DNA of 64,000 bases from Lingula anatina (taxonomy: Eukaryota; Animalia; Brachiopoda): positions 5,828,001 through 5,892,000 of the forward strand of contig CM120645.1 of assembly GCA_051362555.1 (NCBI GenBank). Reading direction: 5' to 3'. Position numbers and translations under genes: made by a program. The notes beneath the pieces are model-generated. The model ran no database searches. It saw only the letters and a list, made by a program, of their open reading frames with translations, and was not told where the DNA came from. Positions 11,429-63,980 of the stretch are shown piece by piece; position 1 is the first letter of the stretch, and each line of letters begins with the position of its first letter.

Positions 11429-12078
11429 AGATAAGATAAGATAAGAGTTTATTCAGCCATTAATATATAAATATAAAATTCATATAAAACGGAAATTGGA
11501 CTGCTATTCGGGTTACAAATTATAAATAAATAAATTATAAATTTCCATTTTTGTTGTTAAAATAAGACACAGCAGATGGGTAAAAACTCTTTAAAAACCT
11601 TTTAGATCCCTTAAAAGTTAAAAGCCTGCAGTTGCTCGGTAAAAATTTAAAAAGCCTATGTGCGGGGTGGGTATAGTCAGACATGATTTTCTCTGTTTTT
11701 GTTACTGATCTATTAGTATAGATGGCACCTAGAGATGATTTTGCCGCACGTTGATGTGACCATATCTAGACGCTTGCGTTCTTCTACAGTGGCCCGCCCA
11801 TACCATACTATGATTGCAAATGTTAATATACTTTCTATAACGCATTTGTAAAAGTTTGCTAAAATCATTTCATTTGAAGTAAAATCCTTCAACTTTCTTA
11901 AAAAATATACCCTTTGCCTCGCTTTTTTTAACTGTTTGTCTATGTGGTCCTTCCATGTAAGTGAGCTATTGAATTCTACCCCCAGCAGTCTAAAATTGGC
12001 TACTTGCTTTACTGCAGTGCCACTGATATGAATGGGTTCTTTCACATTTCTATTCTTTCTGAAGTCATCTGATATCAT
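11429..12078 (-). mobile_element. 5'-truncated non-LTR retrotransposon (Rex1/Babar- or L2/CR1-group), RT C-terminal region and 3' tail
   Basis: The ORF reads FRLLGVEFNSSLTWKDHI...KKARQRVYFLRKL...FYKCVIESILTFAIIVWYG and continues after a frameshift as IMSDYTHPAHRLFKFLPS...SFYPSA. The 3' end has AATAAA followed by a (CTTAT)n tail at ~11429-11453. Confidence 0.88.
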
Positions 12079-13863
12079 ATATTAGAAAATCAGACTGCTC
12101 AATATTGGGTTCACAGTTGAAGACATGCCAAGAGCCTTAAGGCAGGCTGGGTATCAAGTGATGTCATTTAGTTTTTTCCCTCTGGTTCAATTAGTTAGGT
12201 CAGTTGTGAACAGGCCTATGTAAAACACCAAGGTATGTGAAGAGTGTGACACAGTAGTAAAACGTTTTTATTGTTTGAGCATTTCAAATAGTGGCATTTA
12301 CCGTCTGATCACAGCTAATTGCCACAATCTTAAATGACACTGAAATAACATGTTTTGTAAGTAAAGCAAGCATAGTATAAGAGTGTCAAAACAGTTTACC
12401 TTTTTCACAGTATCTTTTCAATATTTTCCTTCAAACTGTGGCACAGATCAAATTAAAATCCACAAGCACTGTCTGTATTTACCTAATACTATATGTCCAC
12501 ATTGAAAGAAAAAACAATGTTCAAACAAATGTTGAAAGATCTTATGGGTACGTATTTTTGAGAATAATTGAAAGTTGAATTACAAAATCTATGTGCTGAG
12601 GTAAGACCCCAGATTCTAGAGATAGGGAACCGATTTCTGAAATATTGAGAAGGTATGTTTTTGCTTGGGTCAAGAAGGCACCTACTGACAGAAATAAAAA
12701 AGCAATTAAGGTAAATCATCAATGTTCAATCAAACTACAAATATGTTTTACTTTTCTAGAATTATAACAATACAGAAATTCTGGGTATATAAAAAAGCAA
12801 ACCTAAATACACTTCTACTAAACTAAAACTCTAAACTGACTATTTGCCGTTTGTGGTATTTCATTAATCAAACCTTATTCAATGACCTCTGGGTTAAGAC
12901 CATCAAAACTGGTAAATTTCAACTATATTATAGAGCAAAGGATGAATGTGAGGATTCAAACTCCTCCTAGAAATTGTAAAAAAACTTCATGTAAAAATTG
13001 TAAAATGCCATGACTATGCCAATAAAAAAAAACTGAGAACTCAATCTGGCAGTATAAAACTGAAGACATAAACAATCAAAAACTAATATAAAACTTTAAT
13101 TAAAGAGATTATCTGTACTTTTCTTTCATCTTGCCTGGGTATTTCTGTGAGTGAAAAAAAAAATAATTTCAATTCCATTTGTTACTGCATTAATTGGGAC
13201 TCTTAGGCACAGTGTGGTTTTCCAGGCCAAGTACCATTAAACACTATGGGATTCTGTTTCTCCAGCTTGTTTTTTTAAATGGACCTACATATTATACTAA
13301 TCTGGCTTCCTGAAAGTAAAAGCTAAAACTACAATGCAGTAACACTTGCTTGACATCAATATCTGTTAATGTATGTTAAAATATGAATACTGGGTAAATG
13401 TCCACTCAGTTTTCAAAACACTTCCAAGAATATCAAAACTGTGTTTTTGGAACTCTCCCTCACGCATTAGGGTTATATACCTGTCTACATGCTCATGTCA
13501 CAACTTAAGATGTACCTCAGCATTCAGAAAAAAAATTCTAAATATTCTGGAGACTGGAAGAAGTACAGGTGTGTCTATACTTCTGTCTTAATTCATAAAC
13601 CATTTGGCTTAGGCATCGAAATTTAGGTTAAATATTTATTATCTATAACTACAATATAATAATTATTGCAGCCAACTTTTTGCCTGTCTCCTAAATTTTT
13701 ATGATATAAAAATAGAACGTTTTGGGTAATACCACGTAGGTTTTGGCACACTACTTCCATTTTGTTCAAGATCCACAGACTTGTGCTGAGCTGCACCTGT
13801 ATTCTAGAGCACTTTTCCAGAGATCCTTCAAAACATATTTCCTCTGACTTCACACCTCATCTT

Positions 13864-21137: not shown

Positions 21138-24100
21138 ATGCTAAATCGGTTTAAAAGCGTGGTGGAGAATGTGATGGGTGGCATTCAGTCCATACCTCAC
21201 AATACAGAGAAGGCGGGGAACCCAGAAAGTTTGGAAATTAAGTACGCGTACGCTCGACCGGACTTTCTTCAACTAACACACGAAGAGGTACACGTATCAG
21301 CGGATCATGCTTCGCGACCTATATTGGTGCCTAGGAGTATTGAGCGCCTTCCTTGGAACGCAGGATATGCAGAGTAAGTCCACTCAATATTCACCTCACG
21401 AAAGGACAAGGGGAAGAGAATGTAATAGATGCCTTTTCTTCTTCACTTACGTGGTTTTGAATGTTTATTTACTTTCTTTTTGTTTTGTTACATCTTATCA
21501 CAAGCAGTGTACCTCTTAGCATTATGTATATTCGTGATTTGGGGTTAATGTATCACACAATAAGTTGGTTTCTGATGTGTGATCTTGGTTAACTTTTATT
21601 TAATTGTGTGTTTGTAGGCTCTCTGATTCAAAATGTGGGTCCATTTTTAAAATACATTTTTAGCAATTTCAAAATATTAAAATATTCGCAGTTTTTCTTA
21701 AAATATTAAAAAAATATAAAAAAGAAAAAGTTAAGATTTTGAAGTATTTGGTGATCTTATAAATGGAATGATAGATTTTTCTCAAGTGATGTGTTTGAAG
21801 TAAAAGTAGAAGTATGTTACGAAAACACTTCCTTATATAGTAAAGCCTCAATATACCAGGATCTAACCCAGCTTCATGTTTCTCAGTGTATACTTCACTT
21901 TTCCTATTTTTTCCATTGCAAACTCAATAGAAATTCAATTTCATTTAAATTTCAAATATACAATGTTTTAAAGAAAGCCTTCAGTATGATAATCTGATAA
22001 GGGCCTTGTCACTATCTTCCTTCCCTCTGTGACATACTGGTACTAATATTTTAATCATGATAAAACTTTTTGCCAGAAAAAACTTTCAGATTTCCTTAGT
22101 TTGTATTATTGATTATTTTAGATGAAGTGCAATTGTTTACAAATGTTGCTTTGTTTTGGCATTGGAGATAAAAACAGGAAAAGATTTATGGAATAAACAA
22201 GAGGTTACACAAGGGAAAATGGATCGTAATTGTTTTATTCTTATCTTTACCCTGGGGCTGTCCCTGATTTATTACTTCTCTGGAATATTATTACATATTA
22301 TAACATTTTGCACATGAGTATAACAGGGTACAGTGAATGACACTCTATATGAAAACCAAATCTACTTAAAAATCCACCATATAGTCCTTTCTTCTCCATA
22401 ATTGATGACAGTGAGTTTATATTTAATAACATTTACTTTGCACCAATTTTCACTTGAAAATATTGTAACAAACCTGTCGCTAGACTTGGATTGTCATATG
22501 AAGTAAACACAATGCATGCTCTATATTCATTTGGTCTATACCCAGTATACATAAGGTTCAAGGTTTGCCTTGCGCATTTTGTCATTTTGGAAAATGTCTT
22601 TTAAGACAGAATAAATATGTTAGATTTAAAAAAAAGTCAAGGATCTTCAGTATTGTGCTGAAGAGGGCCAGTAATCTCATGTACATGTATGAGCTACAGA
22701 AGTACAGCAGACTGTTCTTACAATGTTGAGTAGATTTTATCATTGATCTATTCTAAATCCCATAGCAACTCGCAGTGAGGAAATTATATAACAGAACATT
22801 CTACTTAACACAAATTGTAATGTTCAGCTACTCCTTACAGCCCAAAGGTTTTTCAACTATTGGAACTATTATAGTACAGTACTTATTATACTCAACATCA
22901 CAGCTGGATTATTGTACCACCAGCGTTAGCGCTGGCGGTACACATGGTTTCGGTCCCGTCCGGATCGTTCCGCCGGCTCCGCCGGCTCCGCCGGCTCCGC
23001 CGGCTCCGTTGGCTCCGCCGGACGGCTACCGTTACCGCTTCTCCTCCTAGACGGTCAGGGCCCCCGTACCCATCTCATGGATTTAGGTCACCTATAATCT
23101 CAACTCGTTCCACGTAAAATTTGGGCTTTGTCGGTATTGGGGTCTGGGTGTGGCACTCATTACAATGCACCCTTGTCTAAAAATGGCAAAATTAAATGCT
23201 AATTATCTACCCTACGGAAGGAGTTATGGGAAAAATTTCTATAGACGGCTTTCCAAAAGTCATATGTGTAGATTTCAAATATACCCTTGGATTTGACCTT
23301 TGACCTTTACTTCAAGGTCAAATGGGCCAAAATTTTCAAAAAAATGAAATTTTTTACGAAAAAAATTTTTTTTGCCCTGTTATTCAGACACCACACAGAC
23401 TTAACCAATAATATTATTGGAAGGTGTTACCCTTCAGGTCATCTTTCATCTCCATGAATTTGGGGTCAATCGGTGCATTTTCACGGGAGTAGCGGCCATA
23501 AGATACCGAAACTGAAAACTGTCTCTAATTCGGGAACCGTTAATGCTAGAGACCCATTCTTTTTTGCATTTTGTAGAGCATGTAAAGCCCAACACTGGAG
23601 GTGGTCTCGGTTTTTTTGTATTCCATACGGTTTTCGAGTTACGCTGTATCAAAAAGTACATATTGGTGGTAAAAGCAAAATGTGCAGTACGGTAATGGAT
23701 AATAAATTTTGAACTCTGGAAAAATAAAACATAAGGCTTGGCAAAGCAGACAACTTGTGTTCAAAAATGACATTATTTCATCAAATTTGAACTTCTGAAA
23801 CTTCAGAGCACCTCCTATTTCAAGAATTTTGACCAAAATGACATTTTCTTTATTTTAATTAATTTTTTCTGTACGAAATTTAAGGCACATTATGGTAACT
23901 CCAAAATTATAACATTTAGTCCCTTATATCTCCAAAACTGGCAGAGATAGGTCCATAGTTACTATTGAAGTTGAATAGGAAGTCATATACTGGCAATCTT
24001 ACTATGACCTTGAAAGTGACCTTTGACCTACTTTTCACCATGAACTGAACTTTGCAAATTTTTCTTCCCTTTTATCTCCAAAACTGGCAGAGATAGGTCC

Positions 24101-26284
24101 ATAGTTACTATTAAAGTTGAATAGGAAGTCATATACTGGCAATCTTACTATGACCTTGAAAGTGACCTTTGACCTACTTTTCACCATGAACTGAACTTTG
24201 CAAATTTTTCTTCCCTTTTATCTCCAAAACTGGCTGACATAGGTCCATAGTTACTATTGAAGTTGAATAGGAAGTCATATACTGGCAATCTTACTATGAC
24301 CTTGAAAGTGACCTTTGACCTACTTTTCACCATGAACTGAACTTTGCAAAATTTGCTTCCCTTTTATCTCCAAAACTGGCAGAGATAGGTCCATAGTTAC
24401 TATTAAAGTTGAATAGGAAGTCATATACTGGCAATCTTACTATGACCTTGAAAGTGACCTTTGACCTACTTTTCACCATGAACTGAACTTTGCAAATTTT
24501 TCTTCCCTTTTATCTCCAAAACTGGCTGAGATAGGTCCATAGTTACTATTGAACTTGAATAGGAAGTCATATACTGGCAATCTAAATGTGACCTTAAAAT
24601 TGACCTTTGACCTACTTTTCACCATAAACTGAATTTTGCAAAATTTGCTTCCCTTTTATCTCCAAAACTGGCAGAGATAGGTCCATAGTTACTATTGAAC
24701 TTGAATAGGAAGTCATATACTGGCAATCAAAATGTCAAAATGTGACCTTAAAATTGACCTTTGACCTACTTTACACCATGAACTGAATTTTGCAAATTTT
24801 GCTTTCCTTTTATCTCCAAAACTGGCAGAGATAGGTCCATAGTTACTATTGAACTTGAATAGGAAGTCATATACTGGCAATCTAAATGTGACCTTAAAAT
24901 TGACCTTTGACCTACTTTACACCATGAACTGAATTTTGCAAATTTTGCTTTCCTTTTATCTCCAAAACTGGCTGAGATAGGTCCGTAGTTACTATTGAAC
25001 TTGAATAGGAAGTCATATACTGGCAATCTAAATGTGACCTTGAAATTGACCTTTGACCTACTTTTCACCATGAACTGAACTTTGCAAATTTTGCTTTCCT
25101 TTTATCTCCAAAACTGGCAGAGATAGGTCCATAGTTACTATTGAACTTGAAAAGGAAGTCATATACTGGCAATCCAAATGTGACCTTAAAATTGACCTTT
25201 GACCTACTTTACACCATAAACTGAATTTTGCAAATTTTGCTTTCCTTTTATCTCCAAAACTGGCTGAGATAGGTCCGTAGTTACTATTGAACTTGAATAG
25301 GAAGTCATATACTGGCATTATAAATGTGACATTAAAATTGACCTTTGTCCTACTTTTCACCATAAACTGAACTTTGCAAATTTTGCTTCCCTTTTATCTC
25401 CAAAACTGGCAGAGATAGGTCCATAGTTACTATTGAACTTGAATAGAAAGTCATATACTGGCAATCTAAATGTGACCTTGAAATTGACCTTTGACCTACT
25501 TTTTATCATGAACTGAACTCTGCTAATTTCTTTCTCTTTTAACTTCAAACTTGACAGAGATAGGTCCATAAATACTCTTGAACTTGAATAGGAAGTCATA
25601 TACTGGCAATTTACTGTGACCTTGAAATTGACCCTTGACCTACCTTACGAAGAACTTAAATTTGATTGTACCATATATATTTTTTGCAATAGTTTAAAAA
25701 TTCTTGTTGATTGCATTTTTACAGCTTGTCAAGCACAAAACTGGTGGCTGTGTCCCTTATTTTGTGTATGTGGGGGTCTATACGAATGCGCTTGCTCCAG
25801 CTGGTGGTACAATATTCGGAGGCGGTATCGCCTCTCTGATCCTCTAGTTTTCTTCTTAGATTATCCAGAGGCATAGTGCATACACTGTGCATACTTAAAA
25901 GTGAAGGATGTTTCTACTGCTGCTGAAAAAAATGCATGAAAAAGAATCTAATACCTCTTCAGTGTAGGTCAAGTTGTTTTCCTATGAATGTGTCTTTTGA
26001 GATTGGAATTTGATAGAGTATCTAAAGGCAGTGAAGTAATAAGACTTGTTGAGGATACCATGTAAGTTTTATTTATTTATTGTATTTCAGGCCAAAATCC
26101 AGAGTTTGGAAATTATTCACAAAATTCAAACAAAATTGATAACTTACAGTATTTATCCCAAAGCAATGTTTGCTAGTTATATCATTCTAAAAAAGATTAT
26201 TTGAAAGTTTGAAAAGTGGATGAAGGACGTGTTCCAAATATTTGCATGTGAGCAACTGATCATGAACTAATATATCTTGTAAAG

Positions 26285-26327
<43 letters not shown>

Positions 26328-29300
26328 CTGAAATAATTTTTGAGCTTGTAATTTAGGAATAAAAGCAAACTGAACAGAGCCAGTAAGGATCTTCCACATT
26401 CAGGGTAACCTTAAAGCTATAATTCAGATAACACAAATCTATAAAGACATGAAGACACTTATCCCATTCGGATGATCTTTGCATTTGATGTTAGCAGACA
26501 TGCCAAATCAATGTGCAAATACAGCATAAGAGCAGATTTGATGGGTCTGCAGTATATACGACACTTTCTCACAAAATGTAAATATAATTGTAACAGTATG
26601 TAGTTAAATGGAACTATGTTTACTATACTGTGTGAGCTATACCATGTACATGTAATTGTGTACTATATGTCAAGTGGCTTCGCTATGACCCTTCATCATG
26701 GCTCCTCGTTTTTATTTATTCAGTCATAGTTTGTTTGTTTTTTTTTTCATATAAAACTCATAGTATTTGGGGTTAAATATTATGATGGTGATTTTGGTTG
26801 AAGTCAGAAGTTTTTATGTATATATGACTGATATTACATCATGAAATGACAGAATATTAAACAATGGAATAAACAGTGTTTCAAATTTCTTGGATATTTT
26901 TGTACCACCAGCGTTAGCGCTGGCGGTACACATGGTTTCGGTCTCGTCCGGATCGTTCCGCCGGCTCCGCCGGACGGCTACCGTTACCGCTTCTCCTCCT
27001 AGACGGTAAGGCCCCCCATACCCATCTCATGGATTTAGGTCACCTATAATCTCAACTCGTTCCACGTAAAATTTGGGCTTTGTCGGTATTGGGGTCTGGG
27101 TGTGGCACTCATTGCAATGCACCCTTGTCCAAAAATGGCAAAATTAAATGCTAATTATCTACCCTACGGAAGGAGTTACGGGAAAAATTTCTACAGACGG
27201 CTTTCCAAAAGTCATATGTGTAGATTTCAAATATACCCTCGGATTTGACCTTTGACCTTTACTTCAAGGTCAAATGGGCCAAAATTTTCAAAAAAATGAA
27301 ATTTTTTACGAAAAAAAAATTTTTTGCCCTGTTATTCAGACACCACACAGACTTAACCAATAATATTATTGGAAAGTGTTACCCTTCAGGTCATCTTTCA
27401 TCTCCGTGAATTTGGGGTCAATCGGTGCATTTTCACAGGAGTAGCGGCCATAAGATACCGAAACTGAAAACTGTCTCTAATTCGGGAACCGTTAATGCTA
27501 GAGACCCATTCTTTTTTGCATTTTGTAGAGCATGTAAAGCCCAACACTGGAGGTGGTCTCGGTTTTTTTGTATTCCATACGGTTTTCGAGTTACGCTGTA
27601 TCAAAAAGTACATATTGGTGGTGAAAGGAAAATGTACGGAAGCCCACTGGTGCCATATGTAGAAAAAAAAATTATCTCGAAATTTCGAGATACTATTTTG
27701 AAATTTGAACAAAAAAATTTACCACCAGCGTTAGCGCTGGCGGTACACATGGTTTCGGTCCCGTCCGGTCCGTTCGCCGGCTCCGCCGCCATGTTACCGT
27801 TACCGCTTCTCCTCCTAGACGGTAAGGGCCCCCGTACCCATCTCATGGATTTAGGTCACCTATAATCTCAACTCGTTCCACGTAAAATTTGGGCTTTGTC
27901 GGTATTGGGGTCTGGGTGTGGCACTCATTGCAATGCACCCTTGTCTAAAAATGGCAAAATTAAATGCTAATTATCTACCCTACGGAAGGAGTTACGGGAA
28001 AAATTTCTATAGACGGCTTTCCAAAAGTCATATGTGTAGATTTCAAATATATTTGAGCAAAAAAATTTATCTCGAAATTTCGAGATAGTATTTTGAAATT
28101 TGAACAAAAAAAATGCTATCTCGAAATTTCGAGATAATTTTTTTTTTCAACATATGGCACCAGTCGGCTTCCGTAAAAATGTGCAGTACGGTAATGGATA
28201 ATAAATTTTGAACTCCGGAAAAATAAAACATAATGCTTGGCAAAGCAGACAACTTGTGGTCAAAAATGACATTATTTTATCAAATTTAAACTTCTGCAAC
28301 TTCAGAGAACCTCCCATTTCAAGAACTTTGACCAAAATGACCTTTTCTTTATTTTAATTAATTTTTTCTGTAGGAAATTTATGGCACATTATGGTAACTC
28401 CAAAATTATAACATTTAGTCACTTATATCTCCAAAACTGGCAGAGATAGGTCCATAGTTACTATTGAAGTTGAATAGGAAGTCATATACTGGCAATCTTA
28501 CTGTGACCTTGACATTGACCTTTGACCTACTTTTCACCTTGAACTGAACTTTGCAAAATTTGCTTCCCTTTTATCTCCAAAACTGGCAGAAATAGGTCCA
28601 TAGTTACTATTGAACTTGCATAGGAAGTCATATACTGGCAATTTTACTGTGACCTTGAAATTGACCTTTGACCTTCTTTTCACCATGAACTGAACTTTGC
28701 AAATTTTGCTTCCCTTTTATCTCCAAAACTGGCAGAGATAGGTCCATAGTTACTATTGAAGTTGAATAGGAAGTCATATACTGGCAATCTAAATGTGACC
28801 TTGAAATTGACCTTTGACCTACTTTTCACCATGAACTGAACTTTGCAAATTTTGCTTCCCTTTTATCTCCAAAACTGGCAGAGATAGGTCCATAGTTACT
28901 ATTGAAGTTGAATAGGAAGTCATATACTGGCAATCTTACTGTGACCTTGAAATTGACCTTTGACCTACTTTTCACCATGAACTGAACTTTGCAAATTTTG
29001 CTTCCCTTTTATCTCCAAAACTGGCAGAGATAGGTCCATAGTTACTATTGAAGTTGGATAGGAAGTCATATACTGGCAATTTACTGTGACCTTGAAATTG
29101 ACCTTTGACCTACCTTACAATGAACTTAACTTTGATTGCACCATTTTTAGTTATATATATTTTTTGCATATTTTGAAAATTCTTGTTGATTGCATTTTTA
29201 CAGCTTGTCAAGCACAAGACTGGTGGCTGCACCCCTTATTTTGTGTATGTGGGGGTCTATACGAATGCGCTTGCTCCAGCTGGTGGTACAATATTCGGAG

Positions 29301-46205: not shown

Positions 46206-48030
46206 ATCACTCAATAAAATGCTACACGCTTAGTGATAATATTCATAATTTATCGTGGGAATTTTTCAAAAATGTGCAATAAATTCAGACTTGGTTATCT
46301 CTGTTGGTGTTAATAGTTCTCTAGAATGAAGTCATATTAAAGAAAGATGAAAAGTGGTTGTTGTAACTCTTGGTGGCAGGATGTACAAGATGACCTGCAT
46401 CACATTTGTAACAACAACAGGATCATGTGGTAAATCTGTGGTCTGAGATATCTGATATCAATTGAGGGAATGCAGTTAAGTCTCTTCAGAAACCATTGGT
46501 CCACACAAATAAATACACTGAAGTCTATTGCCCTTGAACTTGCGGGGAGGGGGGGGGACTTCTTGTCTTTTTACGCATAGTTTAAGATTATTTGTATCAA
46601 TCTTGGGACATAATGATCTCTCCTAAAACGAAGACCTAAGGCAAGGAAACCCCCAAGAACTATTCTTTAGTCTGGGTTATATGGCATCAGTCCCAGAAAT
46701 GTTGTTTAATTATAACCCATCAGACTGCAGACACACATGAAGAAACTCAAGTATCCATTGTCCTTGTAACAGAAGGTATGTACTGTCCTCAAGTTTACAG
46801 GCCAAGGCAAAGAAAACCAACAATATACAAGAAATCCACTTCAAATGGACTTATCTGAAAATTTTATGTTTAGCCATGTGAAGCATTGAGATTTACCTGT
46901 ACAATGGAGGAATTAAATGTTGAGATCATATTCCCTTGATAACTGTAAAAATATTCCGTCAGTTATTCTAAGATATTAAAAAGACAGGTCAAGACACTGC
47001 TCAAAGTATGCAACAGAGAAAAAAAAACGTGACAAGCTTACTACAAACAATCTTTTAAGACATACACTTTTTAATGGATTGGCTTTCCTTTTATAAGATC
47101 TTTGATCCTTATATATCATTTCATTCAAGAATCTTCGATGAAGAAAAAAATGTAAATTTGATTATCTATTCTAATGCCATCTTTAAACTGATTTTTAGAA
47201 GTAATCCGATTTTAAGAAGAGCAGTTGAAATACAGTAGAGATCAGTTGAAATTACACTTAAAGAAATAGAATGCTCTCTGATAAACTAACTTTTAATTAT
47301 TTTTTCATATGTTTTATTGTGAAAATACAGTTATCACACCATCACAAACAAACTCATCACAGAAGACGAACAGATTCTTAAAATAGGTGCAAATTGAACA
47401 TCAAAATATGAATTGGTCCCCAAAATAAATATGCCTTAAATACTAGTCGAATGTTCAGGTAAACATCACAGCATAATGTGATCACACAAATGAATAATAT
47501 TTAAGTCCAACAAAACATGTTTACAATACGAAATTGAGACAGAAATATCTGTATGGCGACACCTAATGCTGGCTTATATCTCATATCAGTCTTCAATTAT
47601 ATCAATGCCTGTTTAACTTGTTATATATATTATAGAGATCATAATATTGCACAATCAACATGCCTTAAGATGATGGTTGCCAGAATATCACATCTGCAAA
47701 AATCCCTGAGAGGAATGTTCAGTTGTGGTGGTTTGGTCATGTTAAAATGGGCTTGTTTTCTAATGGTGTATGTTTTATGACAAGGCATTGCTCTTAAGTG
47801 ACATCTCAAGTGCACCTAGTCACACGTATGGTTTACAGAAGGGTCACCTCCTGTGTTCTCATCAAGTCACTAAACCATGTCCTTTGAAGAGTAATGTGTA
47901 GATGACCTATGAAATAGATTGTTCGGAAAGACTGCTGGAATGATCTTCAGGAAACCTCCTGATATGTGTCTGTGGTTATTTTGGTCAAGAAGTTGTGTGC
48001 GTCTAAGGCTTTCACGGTGGTACAATTCAT

Positions 48031-48719
48031 CTATAATAATGTGCAAGAACTGAAAAGAGAAATGAAGAATTTCTAGACATAAAGTATATGCACAGAAACT
48101 CAATGACATAATTATATAACTGCACATAAAATAATTTAATTGAAACATATAAAGAAAAATGGGAGGGGGTTTGCAATTCAACGTGAAGAGTCATATCAAG
48201 ACATCAGCTAAGCTAAATATCAGGCTTTAGTGCTTCTGCCATAAAAAGCAGACTAGTAAACTGGAAATTTTGTTTAAGTCAATTAACAGCTATAAAAAAT
48301 GTACCCACAATGAATATTTAATGAAATAAATGCTTAATATGAAATATTTACTTTAAAATCGGGCACAAAGATTACATGAGACATTACCAGTCAAAACGAA
48401 TGTTTATGAATAAATGTTTGTCAACATGAACATATGCCACTATGCCATGTATTGAATATGTAGCAAAATAATATATTCATTCCACAGCAGCTAATATTCA
48501 GCAATTGGTTAAATGGAACAAGCGTAAAATTGCTAAGAGAAAGCGAGAGAAGAATGTATATTAAAAGGTAAGTTGTTTAGGACCTGGCTAACAACTGTCA
48601 GTGTCTGATAGCAGGGTGTGCAGCTTTGCAGCTTTCAGAACTTGTCATCTTGACGAATGCCTCATGGCTGGCACTCACCTAGACACCAAAGCCCTGTAGC
48701 ACTCACCAAAAATTTCAGG

Positions 48720-48783
<64 letters not shown>

Positions 48784-50093
48784 ATGCTTTAATGAAATAT
48801 GGTCACAATAAGTAAGGACTGAATTCAATGTAAATTCGTAATCACAATTATTCAAAATTAGTTTCATACATTTTGAGCATGTTTTAGTGCCCAGACACCA
48901 TTAGCCAAAGTGGTGAGTCATTCATTTGCAGTACTAGCCAGTCAATGTCAACACATGCTATGGCGAGTTGGCAAGTGGTTATTTCACACCAGGTGAAAGT
49001 AAGATAGTACTGTACATACTGTAGTTGCCCGAAAGAAAAGTGACTGCAGCCACTCAGGATCAGATACAGAAGAGCTGTATAGTTGTTACCTGAATGAGAT
49101 ATTAGGCAGCAAGCAGGGATCCACCTACTTTGACTTTGTATCACGTGGACATTTGCAGCGCTCTTCGACTGGGACACCCTTTAAGGCTTGTTCTATGTGC
49201 TGACCACAGCCTGAAAAACCACATTAAATCAGGCAATAACAATATGTACAGGTCTAATATCAGTTCATTCTTAAACCGTAGATTCTGTAATTTACATGAT
49301 TACTTGGTTAATAAAATTTATTTTAAACAAAAACTTTAAAATTTATTTTTAAAATTAATTTCTAGCATGCTTAAAAGTAAACTTTTGAAGAGCTGTATTC
49401 TTTCCAAAGTTAAACACTACAGCATTTTAAATTCTTAGCTAAAACAGTCAGAAAATAATAATCAGAAAATTTTATTATCGTTTTTTTCAACAAGTACAAG
49501 TTAGCACAAACTTCATGGGTTAGCACTGCTATTGACAATTTTGATTTCATTTCTGTGCCAATGTATAAAAGCAAAGGCCTAAAAAAATGTAAAATTAAAT
49601 GAAAACCAGTTTCCGAACCAGACGTGGATATTACCAATTACTGACAGTTCTGCTGATGAGCAAACTGGCTGGCTTTACAGGATGAGAGGTAAGATAAAAA
49701 TCTAAGAGCTTTTACTGGTGCAGAAACTGATCTTCATTTAACACTTTTTGAGGCCTTTTATGGGTTTATTGGCTGTAGAAATTTGAGGTTCCAATTACTA
49801 ATAATATTAACAGCTAATAAAAACTGTAAAAAAAAAACTGTTTGAAAAGTGTAAGTTAATTACAGGGTGGGGGGATACTACAAAAATACCTAAAGTTGAA
49901 GTAATGGAGAGAGGGTTGCCATGGAAAGGCCTCATACAAACACACTTAAATGAAAAAATGACCCAAGGAGTTCAGGGGGTAAAATGTACAATATATTTAT
50001 CGAATTTACCTGTAAGCATTGTATTCCTTAATCAATTAACTCACCTCCCCAGGTTGGTTTTCCACACTTCTCGCATGTCTTTTTAAAGCACAT
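48031..50093 (-). CDS. 49-aa Cys/His-rich microprotein with C-terminal CaaX box: MCFKKTCEKCGKPTWGGCGQHIEQALKGVPVEERCKCPRDTKSNSCTLL
   Basis: Exon 50093-50045 has AAAATG start context and donor GTGAGT. Exon 49210-49129 has acceptor TTTTTCAG and donor GTAGGT. Exon 48049-48031 has acceptor TTTCTCTTTTCAG and a TAG stop. Total 150 nt with compatible phases. The TWGG|CGQH motif spans the first junction. Confidence 0.8.
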
Positions 50094-50491
50094 TTTGATT
50101 TTCGTCCAACCCCAATTCTTTTCTTCTCGGTGATCTTATGGAATTTTCAGGCTTATGTTAAACGGCAGAAAGTTCTAATTGAAATAAATCCGCTAAATTT
50201 AGTAAACTAGTGTGAAAGTGCAGACGACCTTGCTTTTAAAATACGTGCTTATATATAGTAAGTGCGCATGCGTCAAGATAAGTCTTTAGTAAATTCGGTG
50301 AAAGGATTTAAATCTTATTTCAGACACAATAACGTAGTAAAAAAAACTGAATTATATACTTGTATCATCTGGCAAATTAATACGGGCTATAATACAGACT
50401 GAATATATATTTTTGGCTTGTCTTGGATCAACCTCGTTGCTGTTTACAGTAGCAACAACATGGCGGTCATATGTCGGTCTCTTTGGTTGGG
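50094..50491. promoter_or_regulatory. Putative bidirectional promoter (microprotein / EFCAB12)
   Basis: NRF1-like TGCGCATGCG (50263-50272), forkhead-like TGTTTAC overlapping X-box-like GTTTACAGTAGCAAC (~50441-50456), YY1-like AACATGGCGG (~50457), and a GTAAGT donor at 50492. Confidence 0.55.
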
Positions 50492-51028
50492 GTAAGTTAT
50501 CTTTGGGATTTGACAATCAAAGGAGATTTAGATCATTATAATGTGTAGGTGTATTTCCCCAAATTTAGTTGTTTAACGGTTTTATCAAACCCTTTACTAA
50601 TTTCCCTGCCGAACAGTATAGAATCGCGGCAGTATATCTCTGACACAGAAAAAGACTCAAGAGTCAAGCCTTCAAGACAAGAGTGTTTTGCCTGTTGTGT
50701 TTTTAATAATCACATGTCATTGGATTTGCTTCAGTTAAAAATACCATCGAATGCGAACGACAAAGTGCAGCCTTATCCTGCGGCAAACTTAAACAGTGAC
50801 AACAATGAATGACCAGGAAATGGTGTAGCCTTTGTGCATTGTTTTTATTTTAGTATCTGAAGTGATTAAATAATTTTTTCTTTATGTAACGTTATATATT
50901 ACATTACACTTACAGGTTAGGCCACTGATGAGGCTGATTTTGTGATGTTAACATGACTCTGATTGACCTGAACTGGTGCATTCACTGATTCGTTCTCCTG
51001 AAGCAACAAGTACTTGCAAAGAGACACC

Positions 51029-52928
51029 ATGGGGACCAAGTGGAGAGAAGGAGTGGGGACAGTACCCTCGGACCTGGGCTTCTGTCTTAATCGCCTCTTT
51101 GACCCTTTAAACTATGACCATACTACCGTGGAGGAATTTCTCAAAGGTTACAAAGAAAGGGACCTGAAAAAAGCAAAATTATACAAAATAGCATCAAATA
51201 TGTTTGGTGTGCCACCTGGAGCTCGGAAAAGAAGAATTTTAGCTCCGCCTATGGAAAAGGCCCCAGTGGTCAACCGAAAAATTGAATCTGCACCAGAACT
51301 CTCTCTGCCAGAGAAGACAAAAACTAAAGATAAAGGCACAAAAGATTCAGAGGAAGCAGAAATAGAATATGCCATGCCAGAGCTTGCCAAGTATAAAAAG
51401 TGGTTTAAAGAAAGAAAGGAATTTAGAATCACTTTAGAATCCATGGGTTTGAATGAAGAATGGCTGCTTAACAAACCTGACAAGACTCCTTTAGAGTACA
51501 GGATGCTCCAGAGATTTATAGATGCTAGGACACCAAAGCCGCCTTCTCCTGAGGTTAGTTAGAAACATGGGGATGGGATAAGAAAATACCTACAATAAGT
51601 TTTCTTTTTGATACAGTTGTAACCTTGATGTACAAACTTTTGATATTTTATTAAAAGAATTGAGAAGTTATTAATGCACACTATGTACAAGTAGAATATG
51701 AATCATAAAAAAGGCACCCTGTTAATGCTAAAGGAAAGAAGAAGACACACTTGCAGCAGGTGAGAGGATGTGTCAAAGTGCCCTCCAGAGTAAAAAATTA
51801 GTTTGAAAATTGGCAAGTGTTTTAATCTGGAACTATTTGATTCAAATTTGCCATGCAAAGATTTGTCAGCTCTTTCAATTCCATTTTTCTCATAGTCTTT
51901 TATAAACTGGAAAATTTTAGTCTTTATATACATATATATGTTTTTTTTTCAGCCTGTGATAGAAGTAAATCTAGAGGGCGAACTGCCAGAAAATTTGCCC
52001 TTGGTCCACCGCCCTGCACCTCTGGCTATTAAAGCCATAGATGAGTTTTTACACAAGAAAAATATGAGACTCATTGACTTGTTCAGGAAAGTCGACAAAG
52101 ATAAAAATTGGAAAATATCAACACAGGAATTTAGAAAGATTATAAAAGAGGTAGGTTTAGGAACTGTAATTCTGTATTGAATAATATTAGATCTGCAGCT
52201 GTATGGGACTTGTACAGATGAAGATGAAATATTTATTTATTTATTGACTCCCTCAATTTTTTTTCTCATGAATTGTTTCTTGATATAATATTGATTATAA
52301 TGTTAACCTTATTACAAGCTTTGTCATTTTTTTTCACTTATGGTTAACCCCATTTATTACGCTTTAAAGAGCCATACACTAGTAATCATGTGAAATATAT
52401 ATATATATATCCTCTTAGTCTTGTGTTAGCTTTAGACTTAGTTCCCATAATAGAAAACTATACAGTAATTCCTCATTCATTGTTTAACTTGTTCAATTTC
52501 TTTTCCCCTTTCAGAACCACATCCCCATCTCTGATATCCTGCTGGAGGACTTAATGCTGGCTCTGGACACTGACCTCAATGATGAGCTGGACTACAAGGA
52601 GCTGGCCATGGGGCTTGACCAGTACAAGATAGAGAGGAGAGAGTCACAGAAGAAGATGGGGAGCATAGGTAAGAACTAGAAATAATTGACATGCATATGA
52701 TTGAGGCTTCTTGCTTAACTTTAGAGTTGCTAAGATTTGATTTTAAGAAGTTATTATGTGTTGTCTTATTTGAAGGTGTGTGAAATCTACACATTCAAGA
52801 GAAGATGAAAAGAATCTATTACAACTTAAAAAAATATTGTTCAGTTTCTTGCTCACATTATACTGAACATGGGAATAATTTGATCATTTTTAGTACTAAA
52901 ATTATTGATTATTTTCCTTTTTTATCTT

Positions 52929-61840: not shown

Positions 61841-63980
61841 TAAGAAATTGGATAAATGTAGGTGGAATAAAATTTTGAGGAGGGCCCCAGATCTTTACCA
61901 ATGTGTTGTGTATGTAACTATTAAGAAATTAATTGTAATTTTTTTAGGGAACTTCCATTCTTGTAGACTTACTAGTAATCATGTTGTTTATGCCTTTGTC
62001 TTGTTGGTAATACTAGTATATTGATTCTAACATTGGCAGTGATAAAAATTGTACTTAAAATGTGACACTGACATAAAATTTCCACTACTTATTTTTATAC
62101 AGTTTGCCGAAATGGCTGTGGAAATGCAACCAGTTGGCATAATAAGTGCTACATCAGCATCAGTCACAGTGCCAGCACACTTTGTGGACCAGGTACCTCT
62201 TTTTAATTTAGTCTCATATTCATCAAAGAATTATAACTTTTTTAAATTAATTCATAGTTTTAATCAGTGCACGACAAATAGGGATTTTTTTCCCTAACAA
62301 ATAAAGGATGTTTATCCTTTTATTTAAGTTAGTGGGAATTTCTGTGCTTGATAACTTTACATGTGTTGTATTTTTCTGTATATTTTATTCTTTTCATGCC
62401 ACAGGTGTCTACACTAGATGTAAATCAACTAGCAGCCCAGGAACTGGCTCAGCTTGCCTCGACACCTATTGGCAATAATGTAAACCAGGTGGCCAGCCAG
62501 GTGCAGGTGGCAAGTGAAGTTACCTCTGAACAGGTAAACTTTCAAGGGGTTTACCTGTATGTTTAAGAGAAAATTCTTGTATTGCCTGTATATATTGACT
62601 CTCCTGTAACAGTTGAACACTTATAACCCCATCTACTTTTTTCTTTACTTTGAAATACATTTATTTTTTCAAAACAATTTTGAGCATATTTAGAGATATA
62701 CCACAATCTCTAAATATGTAACCTATGCATACAATTAATGTACCTAATTTTATAGCTAAAATATTACTTTACAGATATATTGATAACACTGTCCTCTTGG
62801 AAAATAAATGACATCTGTTGTTTTCCATTTTAAGCCACCTCCACAGCCGTCCCAGTCCGGAGGGTATCCCATCTATCTCTATCGCTTATCGGAACATGCA
62901 GCAACGCTACTGAAGAGCCTAGACAACATGCGCAATGATCCAGACTCATGCGATGCCAAAATCACGTGCAGAGATGGTCCACCTATGTTTTCACACCAGT
63001 ATCTCCTGATTGCCTGCAGTCCGTATTTCAAACGGCGTTTTCGATCTGGTGGTGAAATCAACATAGATCTTCCAAGTCAACCAGTGAAGCGTATCTTAGA
63101 TTTCATATACACCGGTGAGATTAGTATCAAGTCTGAGGACGTGTTTCCCCTCCTTAAAGCTGCTGAGACATTGATGATTCAGAGCCTAATGGATATCTGT
63201 GTGGACTACATGAAAACTCACAACATTGGTCTTAAGCCTTCAGCAGATGGAGTGACACCTAATCTTGAAGAAGGTTGGAATTTAGACTTGTGCAAAGACG
63301 AGGGGAGTTCTGATAAGCCATTGACATTGAGACAGCAGGAGTCGGCTGAGGCAGAGGAGTACAGTGACGAAGAATATGAATATGATGCGGTCAGTGGTAA
63401 GAGGAAAAGACGAAGGTCAAGTAACCCATACCCATGGGCATGCCCACACTGTAAATTCCGCACACTTTCAAAGAAACGCCTGGAAGAACATGTTGCAAAC
63501 CATTCAGCAGACTTTGCATACAAATGCGCTCTTTGTACTTTCACAGCTAAAAGCAATCAGAGTTTAGTGAAACACATCAGCAGTGGGCACACCACTGAGG
63601 AGTTGAAAAATCTCCCCCAAAATGCTGACTACAGTTGGATGTACCCTCCAGAGCAGCTAGATACCTCGAAAAAGGCTTCAATAAAGGCCAAGTCCACCAA
63701 GGCCCTGTTGGCCATGAACTCTGGAGTGGAGGAGGAGGAGCAGTTCGTTATCAGGATAGAGGCAGCACCCCCTGCTCCTGTCGAATCTCTCGACCACCCA
63801 CAGCAGCAACAACAGGAGGGGGAGGGGGAAAACCAGGACCAGGAGACACTGAAACAGGCGCACATGCTGATGTCAGCAGGGCAGGGGGAGGGGGACAATG
63901 GACATGTTTTACTGGCCACAGAGAACTGTGACTCTGGAGCAAATGGGAATACGAGTCTAGAGGCCGTATCAGAAGGGTGA
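61115..63980 (+). CDS. BTB/POZ plus C2H2 zinc-finger protein (ZBTB-like); may continue beyond the window
   Basis: Exons 61115-61138, 62103-62192, 62405-62533, 62835-~63980. The BTB domain reads HAATLLKSLDNMR...CDAKI...HQYLLIACSPYF...ILDFIYTGEI...LLKAAETLMIQSL. Two C2H2 fingers follow (CPHC...HVANH; CALC...HISSGH), plus a basic NLS-like KRKRRR. The end is either the TGA at 63978-63980 or a weak donor at that point. Confidence 0.85.

Follow-up and report, generated by a model that had tools for sequence, protein, structure and literature searches.

A spliced gene for a conserved Cys/His microprotein in Lingula anatina, made with and without a CaaX box, and its possible link to reactive sulfur

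Precedents exist for each feature seen or proposed in the locus described here: compact metal-binding Cys/His modules, metal binders that carry a prenyl group, and CaaX boxes switched by splicing. Metallothioneins are defined by a very high Cys content and lack a hydrophobic core. Metallothionein-3/GIF is described as carrying Zn/persulfide clusters that store sulfane sulfur and zinc and are recycled by thioredoxin (PMC12618007). Plant HIPPs require an HMA domain and are described as unique to vascular plants (PMC12294528, PMC10459601). In bacteria, described reactive-sulfur operons include cstR-rhdA-rhdB-coaP of E. faecalis (PMC9405070) and PDO-TauE-rhodanese-CsoR of S. coelicolor (PMC7533328). 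Among CsoR-family repressors, one preprint links an x-C-x-C signature to persulfide sensors, including an actinomycete cluster, and states that copper-sensing CsoRs mostly adjoin CopA and CopZ (10.1101/2021.07.25.453692). Finally, lipid anchors can be switched by splicing, as with Cdc42-prenyl versus Cdc42-palm (PMC9868626) and in plant cases (PMC12609287); both papers also indicate that a CaaX box ending in Leu favours geranylgeranylation.

The locus lies in a 64,000-nucleotide stretch of L. anatina DNA (hereafter the window), which is eukaryotic DNA rich in AT (31–42% GC per 2 kb) and in introns. Its minus strand carries a three-exon gene that is real, spliced, and expressed. An initial annotation had predicted this hidden gene and its coordinates, and both the exons and the GT..AG introns are borne out. 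Specifically, exons at 50093–50045 (49 nt), 49210–49129 (82 nt), and 48049–48031 (19 nt) supply 150 nt of coding sequence, and the joined ORF of the CaaX form specifies 49 aa and a stop, ending in CTLL. Cys occurs at positions 2, 7, 10, 18, 35, 37, and 46, and His at position 21. The RNA evidence comes from eight of the nine RNA-seq runs under the same species label, each sampled at 6–30%. The junction reads that the initial annotation proposed to look for are present: the intron 1 joint (49209/50044, joining 50045 to 49210) has 237 reads from all eight runs, and the CaaX joint (48049/49129) has 62 reads from six, the other two runs having only 23 and 18 mapped reads. Mapped reads vary about 20-fold between studies, from 553 per 12.4 million records (run X1) to 23 per 9.5 million (run X4). 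Stranded runs assign the transcript to the minus strand, the introns are nearly devoid of reads, and read depth falls in three blocks, at about 50245–50045, 49210–49090, and 48049–47300.

Exon 1 begins with a 5' UTR (50094..50245, minus strand) whose start is approximate, seven molecules of run X3 ending at 50245; it holds no upstream ATG, the two nearby ones (50269 and 50368) falling outside it. The coding part (50045..50093), whose ATG has A at −3, specifies Met1, Cys2, the CxxC knuckle (C7, C10), and Trp15. Intron 1 (49211..50044, 834 nt) interrupts Gly17 in phase 1. The short form of exon 2 (49129..49210) contributes C18, H21, the helix, and C35-x-C37. Intron 2 ends at one common polypyrimidine acceptor whichever donor opens it; no joint to alternative acceptors within 6 kb, such as 48532, is among those listed in the RNA reads. 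Exon 3 (coding part 48031..48049) carries CTLL at 48045–48034 and a stop at 48033–48031, and is followed by a 3' UTR of about 700 nt (47300..48030) with AATAAA at 47318–47313. The lower end of the 3' UTR is approximate; depth stops in the bin 47304–47437 and is 0 below it.

Upstream, a plus-strand gene (50386–51562) diverges from the microprotein gene, beginning within about 200 nt of its start. Opposite-strand reads break at 50493 and resume at about 50918, ahead of an ORF at 51002–51562 that has no Pfam match. The head-to-head promoter between the two genes contains the palindrome CGCATGCGCA (50262..50272, minus strand), which we take to be NRF1-like and which has one match in the window versus none in 100 shuffles. 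The palindrome overlaps one TGCRCNC motif, presumably MRE-like; with 33 TGCRCNC matches in the window versus 21.5 by chance, a single promoter site is weak evidence. A TATA-like run at 50257–50248 was rejected as a canonical TATA box for the 50245 start, being too near those read ends. Elsewhere in the window, a single long ORF at 62808–63980 (plus strand) encodes a BTB/POZ and zinc-finger protein (Pfam BTB, E 1.9e-18). An ORF at 11713–12081 (minus strand) matches ALKBH8_N (E 1.6e-9), a profile frequently found at the ends of ORFs in non-LTR retrotransposons. Recurring, near-identical translated stretches at 23446–23760, 27398–27718, and 24766–25393 are signs of a duplication within the region and of a tandem repeat of roughly 290 nt.

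Two splice donors give the gene two products. The CaaX joint of the initial gene model exists, but that model overlooked a second donor, and most transcripts encode a form without CaaX (274 versus 62 of the 336 reads across intron 2). Donor A, at 49129 (AAA/GTAGGT, the slash marking the exon end), overlaps a TAG, opens an intron of 1079 nt (48050..49128), and yields the CaaX isoform. Donor B, at 49090 (CAG/GTAACA), lies 39 nt downstream, opens an intron of 1040 nt, and is used in seven of eight runs. It adds a 39-nt extension to exon 2 (49090..49128) with an in-frame TAG at 49127–49125, so the product is a 44-aa protein lacking CaaX, and exon 3 becomes 3' UTR. From the end of this stop to the last junction is 35 nt; stops within roughly 50 nt of that junction usually escape nonsense-mediated decay, and the 44-aa form's stop is thus inside that zone. 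The share of CaaX joints is 12% in study P1 (35/291), 64% in study P3 (27/42), and 0/3 in study P2. Reads of P3 are only 90–99% like the window, as are those of runs X7–X9, whose many fixed differences suggest that these runs, under the same species label, sample a distinct population or a cryptic species. The difference in ratio is confounded by population, tissue, and the mapping filter; the likeness filter may drop long-form reads. One locus yields the same core with and without a predicted prenyl anchor, in ratios that vary between data sets, and so offers a natural experiment.

The coding sequence is under purifying selection, a check that the initial annotation had set for itself. Eight of the 10 coding variants among those listed are synonymous, compared with 20% synonymous sites (binomial p = 8e-5), and the two that are not, E32D and K42E, fall outside conserved positions. 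Both variants listed in exon 3 (48036 and 48039) are synonymous Leu changes. The gene is almost certainly translated.

The 37-residue core belongs to a large family. A profile search placed it with at least 1,877 clusters (2,019 candidates), and a second search found 1,474 clusters among 1,554 candidates. The exon 2 frame alone matches 72 representatives at E ≤ 0.001; 28 of these are missing the N-terminal half, a pattern to be expected where spliced genes have been mis-called. The family pattern is C-x4-C-x2-C-x4-W-x-G-C-G-x-H-x13-C-x-C, and the window protein has C2, C7, C10, C18, H21, C35, and C37, together with W15, L26, P30, and R34, at the fixed spacing. Its core is up to 78% identical to relatives and averages 67% identity to 149 of them, mostly bacterial. 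The initial annotation placed this Cys/His pattern in small uncharacterised proteins of actinobacteria, fungi, and plants, and members indeed occur in actinobacteria, fungi, algae, and invertebrates. Animal members come from the oyster Magallana gigas, the bdelloid rotifers Adineta and Rotaria, and the monogonont rotifer Brachionus. Fungal and protist members come from the basidiomycete Schizophyllum, chytrids, the dictyostelid Cavenderia, and a labyrinthulid, and green-alga members from Tetraselmis and Bathycoccus. Bacterial members belong to Actinomycetota (e.g., Actinomyces), Acidobacteriota, and Myxococcota (e.g., Myxococcaceae). The family also occurs on 11 viral contigs, in a Yasminevirus protein, and on 64 plasmids; no vertebrate name appears among the named matches listed. 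In the oyster model (P0003; UniRef K1QLD1), the core is joined to a tail with PF13359, which looks like a mis-joined gene model that masks the true C terminus. Three bacterial loci (L049, L060, and L062) appear to carry two copies of the microprotein gene.

The family appears uncharacterised in the libraries and literature searched, and the known family whose discovery would have removed its novelty was found neither by sequence nor by fold in Pfam, NCBIfam, or the PDB. All descriptive names among the matches listed are hypothetical, predicted, unnamed, or uncharacterised, and 29 of the 30 plasmid matches listed have no annotated feature beneath them, in a gene table known to be incomplete. 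A Pfam search with the two exon frames returned no family, zf_C2H2_13 reaching 12.2 bits versus a cut-off of 26.5. For 22 members, Pfam and NCBIfam gave no family model, and zinc ribbon or finger matches were confined to single members (E 0.02–0.09); by neither profile nor fold does the protein join the known zinc ribbons and fingers (Zn_ribbon, UBZ, C2H2). A PDB sequence search found no match for the family, and Foldseek against the PDB found no fold match for the models of two relatives. VIA-align of the 52-aa model gave no Z ≥ 2 among 48,161 chains, a search in which small models are often missed. The ESM Atlas returned only "hypothetical protein" clusters with no common Pfam family, and BFVD gave one match, A0A5K0U7B3, an uncharacterised family member from Yasminevirus. 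Among 15 longer matches, 10 of them inspected in what is a weak search, there was no convincing fusion to another domain; candidate fusions in the inspected 10 look like read-through or frameshift joins. The open-access literature searched held no paper on the family. A PANTHER entry, PTHR34724, may cover similar plant and fungal proteins. A family spread across bacteria, eukaryotes, and large viruses, and often unannotated, has neither a Pfam or NCBIfam model nor a solved relative.

Conservation and predicted structure bear on what the core may do. Three alignments (22, 95, and 76 members) show little or no variation at C2, C7, C10, C18, H21, C35, and C37, and of 242 full cores all but one (241) have Cys at position 2. 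At the last ligand, 25 of 80 GTDB loci have CxGH instead of CxC; such a replacement of Cys by His is compatible with metal binding but not with a disulfide. For two relatives, AlphaFold models (52 aa and 40 aa) agree on one fold, with pLDDT of 78 and 88: a beta-hairpin (3–6/13–16) whose turn carries CxxC, then a short helix (22–25). We consider it highly probable that the core binds metal, and the metal is likely zinc. An iron-sulfur protein, such as a Cys3His-type [2Fe-2S] protein of the CDGSH/NEET kind, acting as a membrane-tethered redox or sulfide sensor, would also suit six Cys and one His, membrane anchors, and the sulfur-transfer and redox genes that neighbour bacterial relatives. We judge this reading improbable: CDGSH, Rieske, and ferredoxin profiles match none of 22 members, neither profile nor fold assigns the protein to CDGSH/NEET or Rieske proteins, and a beta-hairpin whose turn holds CxxC is characteristic of zinc knuckles.

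Beyond the core, the tails are modular: hydrophobic and helix-like in bacteria, CaaX in many eukaryotes, and none in others. Taking one copy per locus, 69 of 80 bacterial loci have hydrophobic tails (e.g., xFLxRLFGR), seven have none, four have other tails, and none has CaaX. The hydrophobic moment of the bacterial tails is 0.54 versus 0.49 when shuffled, and higher in 54 of 73, which is modest support for an amphipathic helix; we take this tail to resemble the MinD membrane-targeting helix. In line with the CaaX box noted by the initial annotation, CaaX-like ends recur among eukaryote-type relatives, in 20 proteins (with redundancy; Brachionus CIIS, Schizophyllum CVVG, and Batrachochytrium CEIQ among them) and in five intron-bearing, AT-rich metagenome loci of three types. 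The spacing between the CxC motif and CaaX is similar in relatives and in the window protein. The Cavenderia member has no tail. Members from large viruses (contigs up to 482 kb, L001–L011; Yasminevirus A0A5K0U7B3) are mostly tail-less or acidic-tailed, and the viral contig types show no shared neighbours around them. Adineta ricciae (P0010) and many similar proteins (P0214, P0218, P0222) have long Glu/Lys/Thr-rich tails with no anchor.

CTLL, present in the minor isoform only, follows the GGTase-I sequence rule, and the initial annotation's reading of a Leu-ending box as a geranylgeranylation signal agrees with the literature (PMC9868626, PMC12609287). We expect, with good confidence, that the CaaX form is prenylated. 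Very improbable, in our estimate, is that only the 44-aa soluble form matters and that the CaaX junction is tolerated splicing noise. That account can call on the dominance of the long-exon donor (274/336 reads, and 88% in P1) and on the tail-less members, bacterial (7/80) and Cavenderia. It must, however, contend with a CaaX junction found in six of eight runs and making up 64% in P3, with the similar placement of CaaX in relatives, and with the two listed variants in CaaX codons, both synonymous, though two make only a weak case.

The same conservation could signify an adaptor. Under this alternative, the eukaryotic protein is a structural, zinc-finger-like adaptor for a protein or lipid partner at membranes, and any sulfur link is either peculiar to bacteria as a specialisation or no more than co-regulation. 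The conserved non-ligand residues (K12, T14, W15, E23, L26, V29, P30, and R34) exceed the needs of a simple chelator, membrane tails have been added in many lineages, and copies in large viruses mostly lack them or have acidic ones instead. We nonetheless hold an adaptor to be unlikely, given the absence of a convincing domain fusion (15 longer matches, 10 inspected, a weak search) and of any match to known zinc-finger families, and a mean core identity to the mostly bacterial relatives that suggests a single common activity.

The origin of the eukaryotic genes was addressed with a metagenome scan and a tree built from 37 columns, in which 40 of the 80 bacterial rows were included. The window protein groups with the oyster and bdelloid Adineta members (support 98/80), and all 13 eukaryote rows fall on one side versus bacteria, with support of 42/0, too low to settle the deep origin. 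When metagenomes were scanned for acceptors placed at Gly17, 33 loci emerged, of which 24 belong to the family; this pattern selects for the intron position and speaks to its presence, not its frequency. Ten green-alga-like members, similar to the Bathycoccus protein, have a complete intron of 86–111 nt exactly at the window's intron 1 position. Of the 24 family loci, nine are intronless and five are the AT-rich loci, with CAIQ or CSIL ends inside the core exon; exon 1 of these five was not found in the available upstream DNA. Together, intron position and tree favour old vertical descent with losses over recent horizontal transfer. Transfer, which the initial annotation had raised as one source of a patchy animal distribution, is as a recent event unsupported.

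A first candidate function comes from bacterial gene neighbours. In six-frame counts of 80 bacterial loci (the best-scoring ones, mostly actinobacterial and related, hence not independent), a CoA-disulfide reductase is present in 28, a CsoR-family repressor in 33, and a rhodanese-profile match in 17, at least one of which is the fusion's own domain. At least one of these three sulfur markers occurs in 41 loci; 39 have none, including most Acidobacteriota loci. The reductases are rhodanese fusions, by motif in 26 of 28 and by Pfam in the other two. Twenty-one lie directly upstream on the same strand (3–329 nt), three downstream, and four on the other strand, varied positions indicating that the association persists through rearrangement. 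Each of the five genomes checked has a single copy of the fusion, which puts chance co-location below 1% per locus. In E. faecalis, an enzyme with this arrangement serves as a CoA-persulfide reductase under CstR control (PMC9405070). By inspection, all 33 CsoR-family repressors have retained two Cys but not the Cu-binding His, which matches the x-C-x-C signature of persulfide sensors (10.1101/2021.07.25.453692). Pfam searches of nearest ORFs (150/155) and second neighbours (60/144) recurrently recover the CoA-disulfide-reductase-rhodanese fusions and PF02583 repressors, as well as rhodaneses, DsrE, YgaP, TauE, and thioredoxin. On annotated plasmids, rhodanese and TauE lie within 6 kb in three of four records, and DsrE, thioredoxin, and an MBL-fold hydrolase in two of four. 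Specifically, a Curtobacterium plasmid has the order repressor, microprotein, rhodanese, DsrE, TauE, then thioredoxin and MBL-fold hydrolase; an Arthrobacter plasmid has the same gene set; a Rhodococcus plasmid has YgaP, TauE, and rhodanese near the microprotein; and a Microbacterium plasmid has the repressor directly upstream of it. Non-pathogenic actinobacteria with the cluster include Arthrobacter crystallopoietes DSM 20117 and Microbacterium trichothecenolyticum T2. Many bacterial relatives show the gene context of a CstR-type regulon, an x-C-x-C repressor with sulfur genes nearby. From this context, a role in bacterial sulfur stress is probable. It is the first testable function for the family, reactive-sulfur handling, and the protein is small enough for synthesis and assay to take days.

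These neighbours also bear on the heavy-metal role that the initial annotation had in view. A general chelator or chaperone for Cu, Cd, or Zn, in the manner of plant HIPPs or metallothioneins, would account for metal ligands combined with CaaX, for one MRE-like promoter site, and for CsoR-family neighbours in 33 of 80 loci. We regard it as rather improbable, slightly more so than an iron-sulfur protein. The P-type ATPase DKTGT motif occurs in none of the 80 loci and an HMA motif in one, versus the CopA and CopZ reported beside most copper CsoRs (10.1101/2021.07.25.453692). The neighbouring repressors lack the Cu-binding His, the protein combines 14% Cys with a folded hydrophobic core, unlike a metallothionein, and the MRE-like 7-mer is present 33 times in the window. 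The bacterial context points towards reactive sulfur and away from heavy-metal efflux.

The reading we prefer, tentatively and at somewhat below an even chance, is that the 37-residue Cys/His module, likely zinc-binding, buffers or relays reactive sulfur (persulfide), and that splicing divides it between membrane and cytosol. Splicing would yield a soluble 44-aa form, located in the cytosol, and a 49-aa CaaX form of one conserved core, geranylgeranylated and held at membranes; donor choice would set the amount of protein at the membrane. From the predicted layout, C7/C10 and C35/C37 (or His) may form a structural metal site, and C2/C18/H21 an exposed one at the open end of the hairpin. The fourth ligand of the exposed site could be the N-terminal amine after Met removal, or incoming HS-/RSS-. 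Persulfide would modify or displace thiolates and release the metal, and thioredoxin- or CoA-persulfide-reductase-type systems could reset the thiolates. The sulfur link is drawn from bacteria only: the gene's neighbours in the window, an ORF without a Pfam match and the BTB-zinc finger gene, have no bearing on sulfur. That the same sulfur chemistry is retained in L. anatina we place just short of an even chance. More broadly, and doubtfully, the family may be an ancient one, common to bacteria and eukaryotes, whose microproteins combine two metal-thiolate sites in an undescribed fold and supply a so far missing part of reactive-sulfur homeostasis; its anchor would have been reinvented (amphipathic helix in bacteria, CaaX prenylation in eukaryotes) and here be switched by splicing. 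On that reading, animals would possess a persulfide buffer or sensor that has been overlooked, with splicing determining where it resides.

Compared with described systems, what is new is the connection to reactive sulfur, the exchange of one anchor type for another across the family, and the control of the anchor by splicing. The unnamed family relatives are alike across the whole 37-residue core; the window gene has CaaX in its own exon, toggled by two donors, whereas the five AT-rich relatives encode it in the core exon. The initial annotation's analogy with HIPPs holds insofar as a Cys motif of the metal-binding type occurs together with a C-terminal CaaX, itself confined to the minor isoform, but the window protein has another predicted fold and no HMA domain (PF00403 matches neither exon frame, and one of 22 relatives at E 0.23), and HIPP identity is rejected. 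Metallothionein identity is likewise rejected: no metallothionein Pfam matches the exon frames or the 22 members, Cys content is 14%, and the model is folded. Metallothionein-3 offers an analogy in the proposed Zn-thiolate/persulfide exchange and thioredoxin reset (PMC12618007); it differs in that no sequence likeness was found and that the window protein has far fewer Cys, one His, a defined predicted fold, and an optional anchor. Bacterial relatives sit among the gene types of CstR/CsoR operons, and the plasmid regions resemble the PDO/TauE/rhodanese/CsoR circuit (PMC7533328). The accessible parts of those operon reports describe no such microprotein, and the window gene is spliced, eukaryotic, and in no operon. 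Finally, as in Cdc42, alternative splicing alters a C-terminal CaaX; here, by contrast, one alternative 5' donor that overlaps a stop codon strips the anchor entirely, from a protein of fewer than 50 aa.
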